From Longimicrobiales bacterium (GTDB lineage Bacteria > Gemmatimonadota > Gemmatimonadetes > Longimicrobiales > Gaopeijiaceae), in the NCBI GenBank assembly GCA_965226375.1, contig CBDDCX010000008.1, forward strand, positions 160,001-224,000: a stretch of DNA of 64,000 nucleotides. Direction: 5' to 3'. This document shows positions 12,324-41,313 of this stretch, piece after piece (positions within the stretch are counted from its first letter, which is position 1; each line of letters starts with the position of its first letter). A program made the position numbers and the translations under genes. The notes beneath the pieces are model-generated. The model did no database searches and had not been told where the DNA came from. It saw only the letters and a program-made list of their open reading frames with translations.

Positions 12324-12375
12324 TTGACCACAAGATATAGTGGGTGTAGGTTGGGGATACCTCTAGATTTTGTGG
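12324..12375 (+). promoter_or_regulatory. nrdJ promoter with tandem NrdR boxes
   Basis: CCACAAGATATAGTGG (12328-12343) and CCTCTAGATTTTGTGG (12360-12375), 32 bp apart. They overlap or flank TTGACC-17bp-TAGGTT (12324-12352), upstream of a ribonucleotide reductase. Confidence 0.88.
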
Positions 12376-12494
12376 TATCCTGGAAACTTTTCCACATACA
12401 ACTTTAGAGGCGGAGCCACGTATCGCCGTTTTTCAACGGCCGACGTGTGGTATTTCCACCGACTTCCCAAATCGATCCATGGAGTAACAGCGGC

Positions 12495-15020
12495 ATGAAG
12501 CAGGGGCCCCCCTCAGACGGTGCGCAGATCTTCGACGACGTAGTCCCCGAGGACGTTCCTCCGGCGAATCTTTCAGAGAACGCACGCATCGTTCTGGCCA
12601 AGCGCTACCTGAAGAAGGACGAGCACGGAAACCCGCTCGAGGAGCCCGAGACGATGTTCTGGCGGGTAGCGAGCGTAATAGCCGACGCGGACAAGGCATA
12701 CGGGGCCTCGGAAGCTGCCGTCGGGGAGCTCGCCCGTCAGTTCTATGATCTCATGACCGATGGGAAGTTCGAGCCGAACTCCCCAACGCTCATGAACGCG
12801 GGCCGGCCGTTGGGTCAGCTCTCGGCGTGTTTTGTCCTTCCCGTCGACGACGCTCTGTCGAACGGTGCGAGTGGCATTTACGACACGCTCAAGTCCATGG
12901 CACTGGTGCACCAATCGGGTGGAGGCACAGGCTTTTCCTTCTCCAGGCTGCGCGCTACCGGATCCCAGGTTCGCTCCACCATGGGAGTGGCTTCCGGACC
13001 CGTCTCCTTCATGAGGCTCTACGATGCCAGCACGGAGGTCGTGAAGCAGGGTGGCACCAGGCGCGGGGCGAACATGGGCATCCTGCGGGTGGATCACCCG
13101 GACATCCGGTCGTTCATCACCTGTAAGGACGACACGTCACAGATTACCAACTTCAACATCTCGGTCGCTCTCACGGACGCCTTCATGGAGGCCGTGCGAA
13201 ACGAGGCCGACTACGACCTGATCAGTCCGAAGACCGGCGAGGTGGTCGCGCAGGACAACGCCGTAGAGATCTTCGACATGATCGTGCACGGCGCCTGGAA
13301 GACGGGCGAGCCCGGCACGTGCTTCATCGACCGTGCCAACGCCTTCAATCCGGTTCCCAAGCTCGGATCCTATGAGGCCACGAACCCATGCGGGGAGCAG
13401 CCCCTTCTACCCTACGACGTCTGCAATCTGGGAAGCATCAACCTGGCTAAGTTCGTGAACGAAGACGCGGCCGGGACCGAGGAGCCCGCGGATCTGATCG
13501 ATTGGGACGGCCTGCGCCAGACGGTCGCGTTGTCCACGCACTTCCTGGACAACGTAATCGACGCGAACCGGTATCCCCTTGCGGCCATCACGGAGTTGGC
13601 CCAGACGATCCGCCGTATCGGCCTCGGCGTCATGGGTTGGGCGGACATGCTCATCAAGCTGGGTATCCCCTACGACACGCCCGAAGGCGTCGAGATGGGG
13701 CGCAAGGTTATGGGCTTTCTGAACGAGGAGTCTCGCAACGCATCGGAGAGACTCGCCGAGGGCCGTGGGACCTTCCCGGCCTGGGAAGAGTCGATCTGGG
13801 GTCCCGACGACGTTTGCGCTCGGGATGCCGGGGGACGGCGCGTTCGGCCCGAGCGTCGTCTGCGCAATTGTAACCTCACCACCGTGGCTCCGACCGGCAC
13901 CATCTCGATCTTTGCGGGATGTTCCGGCGGTATCGAGCCCATCTTTGCCGTAGCCTTCATGCGTAATCAGGCGGGTTCACTGATGCCGGATGTGAACCCC
14001 GAATTCGTGGCTCGTGCAGAAGCAGAGGGTTGGTACTCCGAAGATCTCATGACCCGGATTGCCGAAGAGGGCCACATCCACTTCGACGAGGTGCCTGAAG
14101 AAGTTCAGGCGGTGTTCAAGACCGCGCACGACATCACTCCCGAGTGGCACGTGCGCATGCAGGCGGCGTTCCAGGAGCACACCGACTCGGCCATCTCGAA
14201 GACCACGAACTTCCCCACCGAGGCTTCGGAGGAGGATGTCCGGCAGATCTACCAATTGGCGTACGAGCTCCACTGCAAGGGCGTGACGGTGTACCGGGAT
14301 GGCTCGAGGTCCGGCCAAGTCCTCTCCACCGGCAAGACCGAGAAATCGGAGGCCGGCGACACCGAGACCAACCCCGACATCGTCGAGCTCGAGCACTTGC
14401 TGGCGGACGCCCGCGAGTCGCTCCACGGTCTGAGGGTGGAGCTCGAGCAGGTCTATCGGGACCAACAAGAGCAGGACCTCACCGCCGCGGCGTCGCGACA
14501 CAAGCGGCAGCGTCCGGCGATGCTCCGCGGGCGCACGGTCAAGATGAGCTCCCCGCTGGGCGACTGTTACGTGACCATCAACGAAGACGACGATGGGCGA
14601 GCCTTCGAAGTGTTCTGCACGCTCGGAAAGGCAGGTGGCGCTGCCACGGCCGACGCCGAGGCAGTGGGTCGTTTGATCTCGCTGGCGCTGCGTTCCGGCA
14701 TCCCGATTCCTGCGGTGCGGGATCAACTGCGCGGCATCTCGTCGGACCGCGCGGTCGGCGTAGGCCCGAACAAGGTGCTCTCGCTGCCCGACGCGATCGG
14801 CCAGGCCCTCGAGAAGTACATTGCGGAGAAGGATGGGGTGCAGGAGACCCTACCGCTGGGTGTGACAGCGGGGGCCGCAGGCACTCAGCCGCAGACCGGC
14901 GCCGATGAGGGCCATCACAACAACTTCCTTGGAAGTTGCCCCGAATGCGGCGCAGGTCAGCTCGCCTTCGAAGAGGGTTGCGTCAAGTGCCACGTTTGCG
15001 GCTACAGCGAGTGCGGATGA
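12495..15020 (+). CDS. nrdJ: Adenosylcobalamin-dependent (class II) ribonucleotide reductase
   Basis: PNSPTLMNAG, LSACF, GGGTG, RRGANM, TNPCGEQ, APTGT and KGVTVYRDG motifs; C-terminal TSCPD-like domain and CxxC-CxxC zinc ribbon; GGAG RBS before ATG 12495. Confidence 0.96.
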   Translation: MKQGPPSDGAQIFDDVVPEDVPPANLSENARIVLAKRYLKKDEHGNPLEEPETMFWRVASVIADADKAYGASEAAVGELARQFYDLMTDGKFEPNSPTLMNAGRPLGQLSACFVLPVDDALSNGASGIYDTLKSMALVHQSGGGTGFSFSRLRATGSQVRSTMGVASGPVSFMRLYDASTEVVKQGGTRRGANMGILRVDHPDIRSFITCKDDTSQITNFNISVALTDAFMEAVRNEADYDLISPKTGEVVAQDNAVEIFDMIVHGAWKTGEPGTCFIDRANAFNPVPKLGSYEATNPCGEQPLLPYDVCNLGSINLAKFVNEDAAGTEEPADLIDWDGLRQTVALSTHFLDNVIDANRYPLAAITELAQTIRRIGLGVMGWADMLIKLGIPYDTPEGVEMGRKVMGFLNEESRNASERLAEGRGTFPAWEESIWGPDDVCARDAGGRRVRPERRLRNCNLTTVAPTGTISIFAGCSGGIEPIFAVAFMRNQAGSLMPDVNPEFVARAEAEGWYSEDLMTRIAEEGHIHFDEVPEEVQAVFKTAHDITPEWHVRMQAAFQEHTDSAISKTTNFPTEASEEDVRQIYQLAYELHCKGVTVYRDGSRSGQVLSTGKTEKSEAGDTETNPDIVELEHLLADARESLHGLRVELEQVYRDQQEQDLTAAASRHKRQRPAMLRGRTVKMSSPLGDCYVTINEDDDGRAFEVFCTLGKAGGAATADAEAVGRLISLALRSGIPIPAVRDQLRGISSDRAVGVGPNKVLSLPDAIGQALEKYIAEKDGVQETLPLGVTAGAAGTQPQTGADEGHHNNFLGSCPECGAGQLAFEEGCVKCHVCGYSECG

Positions 15021-32982: not shown

Positions 32983-33097
32983 CCCCCGCCCGCGCCGTGC
33001 CGCGCATCACTCTCCCGCCCAAGCCCCCCCGCGCCCTGTCCTACTCTCGCGCCCAAGCCCTCCCCCAAAAAAGGGTAGTGTCGCGATATTTGTGTAA

Positions 33098-34164
33098 AGG
33101 GGGTATTCCCTTAAGTCCACCGACCCCAAGATATAGTGGTTACCGGGGCTCTGCGGGCCGTTTCCCACGTCCGGTGCCGAGGTAAAGGGCCGAAGCTGGC
33201 GTGGGAGCACACTGAACAGCCTGCTCAAGCAAGCGGTAGAACAACAGGCCGCGAGCCCGGGATGTGCGTCGGTTGAAGCGAAAGGTGAACTCGTCCAGAT
33301 AGTAGGGGAGGTGTTCGCGGGCGATCCCTCCTTGGAGGGTTCCGAGGACCCAGCGCTTGAGGAGAGACGCCACCCGATGTACGGCCGACATGAGCACGTG
33401 AGCGGGATCGCCGGAGGTCGAGAGGTTCGTGACCGTGTGGCGAAAGCCCAGTTTGGCGAGTCCCTGATAGCTTGGCCATCCGTCGGTATGCACCGTGCTT
33501 GCCGGTGCGATGCTATCCTTGACGAAGCCTCGCAGAACCGGAGCGGAGAGGTCGGGCACCCAACGCAGCCGTATTCTCCCGATCTTGCGTCCGTCGACCT
33601 CGGCGGCGATCGCGACGATGGCCTTCTTGATCGTCTCGCGGCCCCGCACTCCAGCCTCCACGCCCCCGACATAGCTCTCGTCCACTTGCACAACGCCGCT
33701 CAGCTGGTCGCGATCCGGTCGGACCATGGCCCGGCGGAGCTTGTGGAGCCAGACCCACGCTGTCTTGTAGCTTCCCAGTCCGAGCACGCGCTGGAGCCCG
33801 AGAGCATTGGCTCCGTATTTCTGGCTCGTGAGCTCCCAGGCAGCGAGAAACCACAGACGCAGGGGCGAGCGCGTGCGGTGGAACACGGTTCCCGCCAGCA
33901 CCGAGGTCTGCCTTCGACAGTGTGGGCAGACGAGACGCCCCCGCGATGCTCGCCAGACCTCTCCCAACCCGCCACAGCCCACGCACACAAACCCTTCCGG
34001 CCAGCGCAGACCCTCCACGTACTCCAGGCATGCCGCATCGTCGGGGAAGAACTCGTCCAGCTCCAGCCGCGTACGGGGATAGTCCACGCCGCCACGGAGC
34101 TGAGAAGCCGGAACCGCCATGACCACAACATGTAGTGGGCGGTGGACTTAAGGCAATACCCCCT
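33098..34164 (-). mobile_element. IS1595-family insertion sequence (1067 bp)
   Basis: TIRs AGGGGGTATT(C/G)CCTTAAGTCCACCG with one mismatch; 8-bp target duplication TTGTGTAA (33090-33097 and 34165-34172). Confidence 0.93.
33140..34120 (-). CDS. IS1595-family DDE transposase
   Basis: RWPEGFVC..C...C..C zinc ribbon; VQVDESY, VHTDGW and YLDEFTFRFNRR motifs. Confidence 0.95.
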   Translation of the reverse strand: MAVPASQLRGGVDYPRTRLELDEFFPDDAACLEYVEGLRWPEGFVCVGCGGLGEVWRASRGRLVCPHCRRQTSVLAGTVFHRTRSPLRLWFLAAWELTSQKYGANALGLQRVLGLGSYKTAWVWLHKLRRAMVRPDRDQLSGVVQVDESYVGGVEAGVRGRETIKKAIVAIAAEVDGRKIGRIRLRWVPDLSAPVLRGFVKDSIAPASTVHTDGWPSYQGLAKLGFRHTVTNLSTSGDPAHVLMSAVHRVASLLKRWVLGTLQGGIAREHLPYYLDEFTFRFNRRTSRARGLLFYRLLEQAVQCAPTPASALYLGTGRGKRPAEPR

Positions 34165-34307
34165 TTGTGTAAAAGGGGGTGAGGGGTCCGGGGAGGGTGG
34201 ACAGCCCGGGAAAAAGAGAGGAAGCTCCTTGTGAATGTTCATCATGACACGAACCCGGGGAGTCCGGGCCTGCGCCAGCAGGTCCGGAACCGGAAAGGAG
34301 CTTCCTC

Positions 34308-35489
34308 ATGGAAAAGATGGTTGAAGTTGAGCGGGCCACGCAAGAAGAGTTACGGCAGGATTTGAAGTCGTTGTTTCAGGGCGCGATTCGTGTTACGCTC
34401 GAGATGGTGCTGGAGGAGGAGTTGAAAGCGATGGTCGGAGCGCGTCGTTTCGAGCGGGTCGGCAGCCGGAAGGACCACAGGAACGGCACGTACCTCAGGC
34501 GCCTGCTCACGAGCTTGGGTCAGATCGACGTGATGGTGCCGCGCAGCCGGGAAGGCGGCTCGCCCGCCGACGTGATGGGCCGCTACCGGCGCAGGAGTGA
34601 AGAAGTGGACGAGATGATGGTGGAGGCCTACGTGAGCGGTGTGTCGCAGCGCAAGATGGGCGACGTGACTGAAGCACTGCTGGGTGAGCGCGTGGGACGC
34701 TCGACGGTAAGCCGGGTCGCGAAGCGGCTCGATGGGGCTGTAGAAGCGCTGCGGAGCGCACCCATCGAGGGGCCTCACCCCTATCTGTATCTGGACGCGA
34801 CGTTCCTCGATGCGCGCTGGGCCAGGAAGGTCGAGAACGTGAGCGCGCTCGTGGCCTACGCGGTGGATCCGGACGGTCACCGCCGGCTCCTGGCCATCAC
34901 GCTAGGCCCTGAGGAGTCAGAGGACAGTTGGTCGGAGCTCCTCGAGCAGCTCCTGGAGCGAGGTCTCAGCGGCGTCGAACTGGTGATCGCCGACAAGCAC
35001 GCGGGCCTGGCAGCTGCGGTGCGCCGCTTCCTGCCTGAGGTGCGCCGTCAGCGCTGCACCGTGCACCTGCAACGCAACGTGCTGGCCAAGGTCCCGCATC
35101 GCCTGCGCAAGCGTGTGGCGCGCGAGGTTGCCGCCGTCTTCCGGGCCCCCGGGCTCGCTGAGGCGAAGAAGCGCCTGGCCGAGATCACGACGCGCTGGCA
35201 AGAGGAGCTCCCCGAGGCAATGAAGGTGCTCGAGCGGGGCTTCACGGCCGCCACCCAGTTCTACGCGTTCCCCGAGCCCCACTGGGCCAGGCTACGCACC
35301 ACGAACAGCCTCGAGCGCCTGCACACCGAGATCAAGCGTCGGATCCGGAGCGCCGGCGCCTTCCCCGACCGAGCCAGTGCGCTCCGCCTCATCACCGCGG
35401 TTGCTCTGAAGACTACTGCGGTCTGGAGCGAACGCCGCTACCTCGATCTCACGCTTCTCGAACCCAAGGAGGTCGCCAAGGCAGCCTAA
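34308..35489 (+). CDS. IS256-family (Mutator-like) transposase
   Basis: RNG...VPR.R, YVSGVS.R, YLYLDA, IAD.H.GL, QRC.VH..RN and RTTNSLERL..EIKRR motifs. Confidence 0.96.
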   Translation: MEKMVEVERATQEELRQDLKSLFQGAIRVTLEMVLEEELKAMVGARRFERVGSRKDHRNGTYLRRLLTSLGQIDVMVPRSREGGSPADVMGRYRRRSEEVDEMMVEAYVSGVSQRKMGDVTEALLGERVGRSTVSRVAKRLDGAVEALRSAPIEGPHPYLYLDATFLDARWARKVENVSALVAYAVDPDGHRRLLAITLGPEESEDSWSELLEQLLERGLSGVELVIADKHAGLAAAVRRFLPEVRRQRCTVHLQRNVLAKVPHRLRKRVAREVAAVFRAPGLAEAKKRLAEITTRWQEELPEAMKVLERGFTAATQFYAFPEPHWARLRTTNSLERLHTEIKRRIRSAGAFPDRASALRLITAVALKTTAVWSERRYLDLTLLEPKEVAKAA

Positions 35490-41110: not shown

Positions 41111-41313
41111 CACGCACGGTCGATAGGGATTCTGGATTCACGTCGAAGCAGAATGTCCCATGCGGGCACGTCTGAGGCAATAAGGCCGCCGTCCACCCCC
41201 ATCCGTCGGGGAATACCCCACGTTATCTTGCGGCTCATCCCGGACAGCCGGGAACATCGGATGGTGACATCGTATAACTGGTAGTCAAGTTCTTCCTGGT
41301 GAGGAGAGATCAC

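Follow-up and report, generated by a model that had tools for sequence, protein, structure and literature searches.

Several transposable elements carry sites for host proteins in their ends, among them the Dam GATC sites of IS10 and IS50, the DnaA box in the outside end of Tn5 and the IHF sites of IS10 and IS1, and the Tn5 transposase is under LexA control. In these systems, a conserved host-protein site lies in or near the terminal repeat, over the transposase promoter, and ties the element to the replication or stress state of its host. Here we describe a complete insertion sequence (IS) of the IS1595 family, located at 33098-34164 of a 64,000-nucleotide stretch of a Longimicrobiales genome (assembly GCA_965226375.1, contig CBDDCX010000008.1, positions 160,001 to 224,000; hereafter the window). 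Just inside each of its ends, this element carries a 16-bp palindrome that closely resembles the binding site of the repressor NrdR. Judging from the sequences, we think it fairly probable that the two palindromes are sites for the host NrdR, used in a non-canonical manner with one box per end, and we predict that NrdR binds them.

NrdR has been regarded as a repressor that is dedicated to ribonucleotide reductase (RNR) genes and needs two closely spaced boxes. The boxes of RNR promoters (PMC9110341, PMC13584703, PMC12051234) are 16-bp partial palindromes with six highly conserved positions, C4, A6, A8, T9, T11 and G13 (PMC13584703), and NrdR binds as a tetramer on two of them, 15-16 bp apart (PMC13584703, PMC12051234); a spacing of 24-27 bp is also tolerated (PMC9110341, PMC13584703, PMC12051234). 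Recognition proceeds largely via DNA shape and backbone contacts (PMC9110341). The boxes of the IS share with those of RNR promoters the 16-bp partial palindrome, the six positions, the letters that are tolerated or avoided at the variable positions, the CCAC...GTGG flanks and a host with a NrdR of its own; in relatives of the element, they also appear to overlap the -10 and transcription start region. They differ in that RNR-promoter boxes come in close pairs, whereas the IS has one box per site, the two sites being about 1 kb apart, and in that the IS boxes belong to mobile DNA and are not associated with RNR genes.

Compared with the Dam, DnaA, IHF and LexA cases, the box of the IS is duplicated symmetrically at both ends, and the known binding mode of NrdR fits a lone site poorly. 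A single NrdR box outside the RNR genes has been described at topA of Pseudomonas aeruginosa, and it was doubted by the authors of PMC12051234 because it is single; unlike that site, the lone boxes of the IS are conserved two to an element, and their presence follows that of nrdR in the host. As to the IS1595 family, the element shares its zinc ribbon and DDE transposase, its length of about 1 kb, its GGGTAT-type repeats and its 8-bp duplication, whereas the subterminal box is present in part of the family only and is not mentioned in the literature listings that we found. Searches of the literature and of the main text of NrdR papers turned up no link between NrdR and a transposon.

NrdR-type boxes in the ends of the element

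The boxes, the native operator to which they are compared and the parts of the element that frame them are located as follows:

12328..12375, plus strand: canonical NrdR operator upstream of nrdJ (box 1 at 12328-12343, CCACAAGATATAGTGG; 16-bp linker; box 2 at 12360-12375)
12447..15020, plus strand: nrdJ, B12-dependent ribonucleotide reductase (NF006417, 1139 bits, cut-off 961)
33098..34164, minus strand: complete IS1595-family insertion sequence, 1067 bp, with the transposase on the minus strand
33098..33122, plus strand: terminal inverted repeat of the transposase-distal end (IRR), AGGGGGTATTCCCTTAAGTCCACCG, matching the reverse complement of 34140-34164 at 24/25 positions
33124..33139, no strand assigned: NrdR-type box at IRR, CCCCAAGATATAGTGG, abutting the transposase stop codon; 15/16 identical to nrdJ box 1
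33140..34120, minus strand: transposase gene, 326 amino acids from the ATG at 34120 (open reading frame 33140-34126)
34123..34138, no strand assigned: NrdR-type box at IRL, CCACAACATGTAGTGG, 2 bp upstream of the ATG; 14/16 identical to the nrdJ box
34140..34164, minus strand: terminal inverted repeat of the transposase-proximal end (IRL)

Each box occupies positions 27-42 counted from its tip, directly after the 25-nt repeat. The first-pass annotation had placed the boxes there and had reported their 15/16 and 14/16 matches to the box at 12328-12343; both statements held, and the reading frame downstream of that box is indeed nrdJ. Likewise, we found as it had said that one box stands 2 bp upstream of the ATG at 34120 and the other abuts the stop codon, and that the two boxes differ from each other yet keep the palindromic pattern while the 25-nt repeats are near-identical, with one position that differs. 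All six positions that define a NrdR box are kept in both IS boxes. Moreover, the right box differs at two positions (14/16 identical) from the consensus-based synthetic NrdR box ACACAACATCTAGTGG (PMC13584703).

The source genome has a single nrdR gene (TIGR00244, 173.6 bits, cut-off 124.65), and the nrdJ operator is its only pair of boxes with 12/12 defining positions at canonical spacing. The genome contains 90 element-borne boxes against 2 native ones.

To compare the IS boxes with native ones, we derived a weight matrix from the RNR promoters of eleven other genomes, which supplied 22 native boxes, chosen by coordinates; the window's own pair was excluded. On this matrix, the IRR box scored 16.4 bits and the IRL box 18.9 bits, while the native boxes themselves, scored with one pair left out at a time, had a median of 11.8 bits (range -0.7 to 18.2). 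The 71 box ends of relatives that keep all six positions had a median of 16.8 bits on the same matrix. A score of at least 16.4 bits was reached by at most 3 per 100,000 random 16-mers of the genome, in a sample that included the IS copies. The six-position core alone is not rare: it occurs at 636 sites of the genome, 90 of them in the element and 546 outside, for a composition-based estimate of about 470, and therefore the flanks and the variable positions matter. With up to three mismatches to the nrdJ box allowed, the window contained 5 sites against 0.10 expected, a count that was reached in none of 100 shuffles; genome-wide, 104 sites were found, of which 90 are the two IS boxes. Chance is excluded as the source of the box matches in the window.

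A few other sites differ from the nrdJ box at three positions. A lone site in the window, CCGCAAGATAACGTGG (41218-41233, minus strand), has three mismatches and lacks T11, and is probably a chance occurrence. Outside the window, CCCCTATATTATGTGG, also three mismatches from the nrdJ box, is found at G000:C2:48903 and G000:C6:12605; these two loci are similar, and in both an AT-richer stretch lies upstream of a shared coding start.

Relatives of the element and their hosts

We collected relatives of the element from species genomes (19 of 78 loci, one per contig), plasmids (12 of 55 records) and metagenomes (80 loci), which together with the window copy made 104 elements. Both ends could be read in 87 of them; in L051, L052 and L062 the terminal repeat was not found. 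According to a rule fixed beforehand, we took from each end the 16-mer lying 22 bases (+/-3) after the G[GC]TAT anchor. A box-like motif was present at both ends of 48 of the 87 elements, at neither end of 36 and at one end of 3, and 30 of the 48 kept all six positions at both ends. The offset from the GGGTAT anchor was identical in 94 of the 103 box-like ends. The outer repeat differs in sequence between lineages and drifts with the transposase, while the core of the box stays fixed; the motif is kept down to about 43% transposase identity while the neighbouring bases change. The invariance of positions 4, 6, 11 and 13 among these ends is partly imposed by the selection rule, and the independent signal is the two-peaked split between ends that keep six of six positions and ends without the motif.

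The variable positions were also informative. A7 occurs in 5 of the 103 box-like ends, T10 and G5 in one each and C12 in none, and these same four letters are found in none of the 10 boxes of Table 1 in PMC13584703. By this comparison of letters, the variable positions of the IS boxes behave like those of native NrdR boxes.

Box-bearing elements were found in Gemmatimonadota, Acidobacteriota, Chloroflexota, Thermodesulfobacteriota and Spirochaetota, and in a bin assigned to Candidatus Eisenbacteria; the named carriers are ISAcr1 of Acidiphilium and an element on a plasmid of Legionella antarctica, while the named relatives ISCsp2 and ISRama1 have no box. The expectation of the first-pass annotation that homologous elements conserve the motif was thus borne out, at both ends of the 48 elements and in at least five named phyla. 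In a tree of the transposases, box-bearing rows are scattered and include the deepest branches; the well-supported branches force at least 11-12 changes of box state, and parsimony gives 17. We read this pattern as that of a probably ancestral box, lost many times and nearly always from both ends together. As would be expected of an element with host-controlled ends, the site keeps a fixed place in diverged relatives, and its presence follows the host factor (see below).

The proximal box is placed where a repressor of the transposase gene might be expected. All 36 proximal boxes with six of six positions end close to the first in-frame start, at a distance of -4 to +8 nt; the commonest distance is 8 nt (17 cases), and in the window element it is 2 nt. 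In the latter, an in-frame GTG at 34126, upstream of the transposase ATG, falls within the box itself. At positions 11-16, the proximal boxes follow the pattern T-A-G-T-A/G-T (T11 in 50/52, A12 in 39/52, T16 in 37/52), a -10 pattern that the distal boxes do not share (A12 in 8/51, T16 in 14/51). With both ends read inwards from their tips, AA stands at positions 5 and 12 in 31/52 proximal boxes and TT in 31/51 distal ones. Since the letters of proximal and distal boxes differ systematically, the site behaves as a symmetric dimer site and not as the extension of an oriented repeat. In the relatives, the -10-like TAGTAT and the start codon within 8 nt look like the arrangement of a leaderless gene, with its promoter lying under the operator.

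Two observations on individual relatives are added here. In the window copy (OWN) and its two closest box-bearing relatives (L140 and L182), the asymmetric letters at positions 5 and 12 stand the other way round with respect to the transposase gene than they do in most relatives. This could reflect an inversion of the interior through recombination between the terminal repeats, an event that has reportedly been described for other insertion sequences. In addition, the box-less elements ISRama1 (L122) and ISCsp2 (L123) carry CTG-N10-CAG palindromes about 50-66 bases from each end, CTGGATGGATATACAG at both ends of ISRama1, and CTGGATGGAAACCCAG and CTGTGATTTCATCCAG in ISCsp2; the proximal one overlaps the start codon. 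These palindromes resemble proteobacterial LexA (SOS) boxes. If they are true LexA boxes, this IS group may include a further clade that relies on a host repressor other than NrdR.

We then asked whether the box is found together with NrdR in the host. To be counted as box-bearing, a host needed one or more element ends with all six positions of the box at the fixed offset; it was counted as having a NrdR system if it had either nrdR above the curated cut-off or paired boxes in an RNR promoter. A NrdR system was present in 15/15 box-bearing hosts and in 8/15 box-less hosts (Fisher one-sided p=0.0032), so that, contrary to what the first-pass annotation had named as a refutation, the motif is not equally kept in hosts lacking nrdR. 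Among box-bearing hosts, the gene itself was found in the window genome and in G002, G007, G008, G009, G011, G726, G424, G794, G443, G482, G892, G1064 and G1210. The fifteenth, G004, has at least 43 copies of the box-bearing element; nrdR is missing from its assembly, and two boxes, 31 bp from each other, remain in its RNR promoter, as in its nrdR-positive relative G002. It was counted as having the system because this pair is kept, and it was dropped as a counter-example for the same reason. Among box-less hosts, G001, G003, G006, G012, G013, G015 and G741 have nrdR and G014 qualifies by its promoter pair, while G005, G163, G221, G1146, G949, G1230 and G1226 have no nrdR. The association is retained with p=0.007 if the gene itself is required (G004 and G014 negative) and with p=0.014 if G010, which is considered in the following section, is counted against it.

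The contrast is sharpest within Spirochaetota, where nrdR was found in 3/3 box-bearing genomes against 0/7 genomes with box-less or decayed elements (p=0.0083), with at least six element lineages as judged by their repeats. Of 151 genomes sampled from this phylum, 31 had nrdR above cut-off, as did 35 of the 92 genomes in one of its orders. In the nrdR-less hosts of L259 and L243, the boxes are lost or degraded while the nearest relatives, 61-69% identical, are box-bearing; one of the two elements retains a five-of-six remnant, and L259 still has a -10-like TAGGAT. A search for RNR-promoter pairs with at least 10/12 positions found none in the nrdR-less G005, G1146, G949, G1230, G163 and G1226, and in G221 one weak 5+5 pair with a 26-bp spacer that we read as chance. 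This check is uninformative for Spirochaetota, in which two nrdR-positive genomes with a match were also without a convincing pair. All together, these comparisons suggest that the presence of the box follows host nrdR, an association that is new. As a side observation, nrdR is patchy in the spirochaete order to which G005 belongs, occurring there in blocks of neighbouring rows.

The tally was made with the following scope. It left aside G010, the plasmid hosts, G207 and G121 (ends off the contig or broken) and nine Desulfobacterota whose ends were not located by the anchor, namely G703, G756, G556, G684, G686, G520, G629 and G569, all nrdR-positive, and G707, in which nrdR was not found. It also excluded 14 remote relatives from Spirochaetota (E 1e-44 to 1e-66) that show no box with six of six positions where the anchor would place it; 13 of these 14 were nrdR-negative. 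Among the hosts counted, the boxes of G1064 and G1210 lie in truncated copies of the element, and the box-bearing element of G892 is on a contig that holds nothing else.

NrdR or another binding protein

A number of observations weigh against NrdR as the protein for which the boxes are kept, the main one being the single box per end. In 10/10 box-bearing elements, there are exactly two six-of-six sites, one at each end. When the 16-mers at +31, +32, +42 and +43 of these ten elements were scored for a second box, none exceeded 4/6. A scan for pairs with at least 11/12 positions joined the IS boxes only to five-of-six sites in the flanks or in the repeat tip, at varying spacers, and we read these pairings as chance. 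An isolated box is not bound by NrdR (PMC13584703), and with one intact box the affinity is 530-1000-fold lower (PMC12051234). By a rough estimate, a 1-kb loop that joins two weak half-sites would not restore strong binding. In addition, the boxes are inside an insertion sequence and not upstream of an RNR or nrdR operon, and the central AT or another core position is changed in 32/103 box-like ends, which is rare in native boxes; A8 and T9 changes are tolerated in vitro (PMC13584703).

The window copy itself is less clear than its relatives as to the promoter, since a simple scan of it returned 0 sigma-70-type promoters and its proximal box reads TTGTGG, not TAGTAT. On the side of the hosts, eight NrdR-positive genomes have box-less elements, so the presence of NrdR does not enforce the box. 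The hosts are not phylogenetically independent (G1064 and G1210 are adjacent in the order listing), and the p-values come from a test without phylogenetic correction; many host genomes are incomplete metagenome-assembled genomes whose completeness is unknown. Finally, there is one possible exception: a box-bearing element, L056, is binned with G010, a Candidatus Eisenbacteria genome, and in this phylum nrdR is above cut-off in 1 of 31 genomes (G815-G844 among them). The assignment of L056 to G010 is uncertain, since its 1,481-bp contig holds nothing but the element; the element is absent from the other genomes of that phylum. The proposal of the first-pass annotation that the IS may co-opt host NrdR, to repress the transposase, mask the ends or bridge them, has thus gained from the conservation of the boxes and from the nrdR association, while the lone box at each end and the lack of a promoter hit in the window copy speak against it.

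Could closely spaced boxes arise at junctions between ends? By hand arithmetic, the 9-bp spacer of a tandem pair of copies on contig C5 would bring two boxes to about 61 bp from each other, and a hypothetical junction of abutted ends to about 52 bp. Neither distance belongs to a known spacer class, and both possibilities were dropped.

According to the main rival, which is a serious one, the box belongs to the terminal repeats as their inner module, and the transposase of the element binds there, to recognise the ends or to regulate its own gene; the likeness to NrdR boxes would then be convergent, arising from easily kinked DNA flanked by CAC/GTG. Such a module would be expected to lie in mirror image at the two ends, just inside the 25-nt repeat, and to be retained or lost at both ends together, as the box is (48/36/3), and these features too count against NrdR. 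A single box at each end is suited to a transposase but not to NrdR. Transposases, moreover, often bind over their own promoters. Nevertheless, we consider this explanation somewhat unlikely. The site is palindromic and not oriented, and its proximal and distal forms differ (AA in 31/52 against TT in 31/51). The nearest relatives L040, L049 and L050 (63-67% identity) have the same type of repeat without the box, so the transposase does not need it; and the at least 11 changes of box state are accompanied, as far as can be judged by eye and without a formal column test, by no matching difference in the N-terminal DNA-binding region. As the transposase diverges, the outer repeat changes with it and the core of the box does not; nor does a transposase site give a reason for the absence of the box from all 7 nrdR-less hosts and its restriction to hosts with NrdR. 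The zinc ribbon of the transposase also shows no specific similarity to that of NrdR. A homology between the two ribbons had been considered and was rejected: hhalign gave a probability of 11% and aligned only the two CxxC pairs, leaving the reading hairpin and the RRRR motif without counterpart.

Other insertion sequences have ends at which DNA-bending proteins of the host act, and the box might accordingly serve another dimeric host or nucleoid protein whose distribution overlaps that of NrdR, or provide an intrinsic bend for the assembly of the transposition complex. We know of no other factor with the alternating C-A-AT-T-G pattern. The agreement with native NrdR boxes is close letter by letter, avoided letters included, and the association that we found is with nrdR itself, which makes this alternative quite improbable, even if recognition by shape and backbone (PMC9110341) means that another kink-inducing protein could prefer similar DNA. 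A resemblance by chance and without function, in a longer terminal repeat inherited from an ancestor, is very unlikely. The six-position core is common enough to allow it (636 sites in the genome, 546 of them outside the element, for an estimate of about 470); but scores of 16-19 bits are found in at most 3 per 100,000 random 16-mers, in the sample with IS copies described above, and the offset is fixed at both ends down to about 43% transposase identity.

In our view, the letter-by-letter match, the independence from the transposase and the association with nrdR outweigh the objection of the single box, and it is therefore probably the host NrdR that keeps the boxes in place. In such a scheme, the dATP/ATP-sensing NrdR of the host would constrain two palindromes in the inner ends of an old IS1595 subgroup. 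The proximal box would cover the site of the -10 hexamer of the relatives and reach within 2-8 nt of the start codon, so that a bound protein would shut off transposase synthesis. Since there are two boxes per element, lost together, and a NrdR tetramer needs two, we infer that the pair would be formed across the element, or that end-bound transposase helps. Transposase expression or the use of the ends would then follow the state of the deoxyribonucleotide (dNTP) pool. NrdR binding, the way around the single-box problem and the regulatory outcome are thus all proposals drawn from the sequence patterns. A prediction of a complex of two NrdR chains with transposase residues 1-140 gave a score of 0.00, which is evidence neither for nor against.

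A more elaborate model may be imagined, which we hold to be unlikely in its entirety. The IS ends would form a second, non-RNR class of NrdR targets, in which a tetramer clamps both ends of one element, possibly with end-bound transposase, silences the leaderless transposase gene and blocks or times the pairing of the ends according to the dATP/ATP state; the 90 boxes could soak up NrdR, so that a burst of the element would feed back on RNR expression.

If NrdR does act on these boxes, mobile DNA would have to be added to its regulon, and this in many phyla. Transposition would be coupled to the supply of dNTPs, as it is to replication in elements that respond to Dam or DnaA. It would also mean that NrdR has a mode of binding to separated boxes that lies outside current structural work. 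According to published work, NrdR proteins bind the boxes of other species, and the finding is therefore testable with existing reagents. Independently of the mechanism, genome-wide predictions of NrdR sites will catch these elements by the dozen (90 sites here) and need to recognise them.

Copies and surroundings of the element

The transposase contains the domains DDE_Tnp_IS1595 (PF12762, E 2e-29) and Zn_ribbon_IS1595 (PF12760, E 9e-12) of Pfam. The repeat core GGGTAT-N4-TTNANN is common to the element and its relatives, and the element is flanked by a duplication of its target:

33090..33097, no strand assigned: target-site duplication, left copy, 8 bp, TTGTGTAA, repeated after the right tip
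34165..34172, no strand assigned: target-site duplication, right copy, 8 bp, TTGTGTAA

The domains, the inverted repeats, the 8-bp duplication and the presence of multiple copies all place the element in the IS1595 family. The source genome (4.23 Mb, 8 contigs) holds 38 copies in which both end cores are exact, and BLAST finds about 40 that are full-length and 100% identical. As read from the listing and without a formal count, 8-bp duplications flank most of the 38, each copy having its own. The right tip (34162-34164) reads CCT in the window copy and two others, and CAT in 35 of the 38 copies; in most copies of the element, the two terminal repeats are thus mismatched at their position 2.

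In the window, the element is inserted in the end region of another repeated element (33081-33097 and 34165-35489), whose neighbouring gene at 34308-35489 encodes a transposase of the IS256/Mutator family (PF00872, E 4e-104). Identical flanks, with the TTGTGTAA target in either orientation, recur at G000:C8:2230412, C8:1929244, C8:1001304 and C7:206641, which implies either that the composite was copied or that one site was hit repeatedly.

Head-to-tail tandem pairs of the element, with 9-18 bp between the copies, were found at G000:C5:241213-243355 and, in G004, at C68:228207-230278, C25:43240-45318 and C39:38699-40771. In the C5 pair, the spacer corresponds to one length of the target duplication and the same 8-9 bases are present three times, which suggests either that the element inserted more than once at one site or that a dimer was the intermediate. 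Finally, two adjacent decayed relatives with broken frames lie outside the window, at G000:C8:12300-15400, and their boxes, CCACAAGATGTAGTGG and CCACAACATGTTGGGT, are still recognisable.

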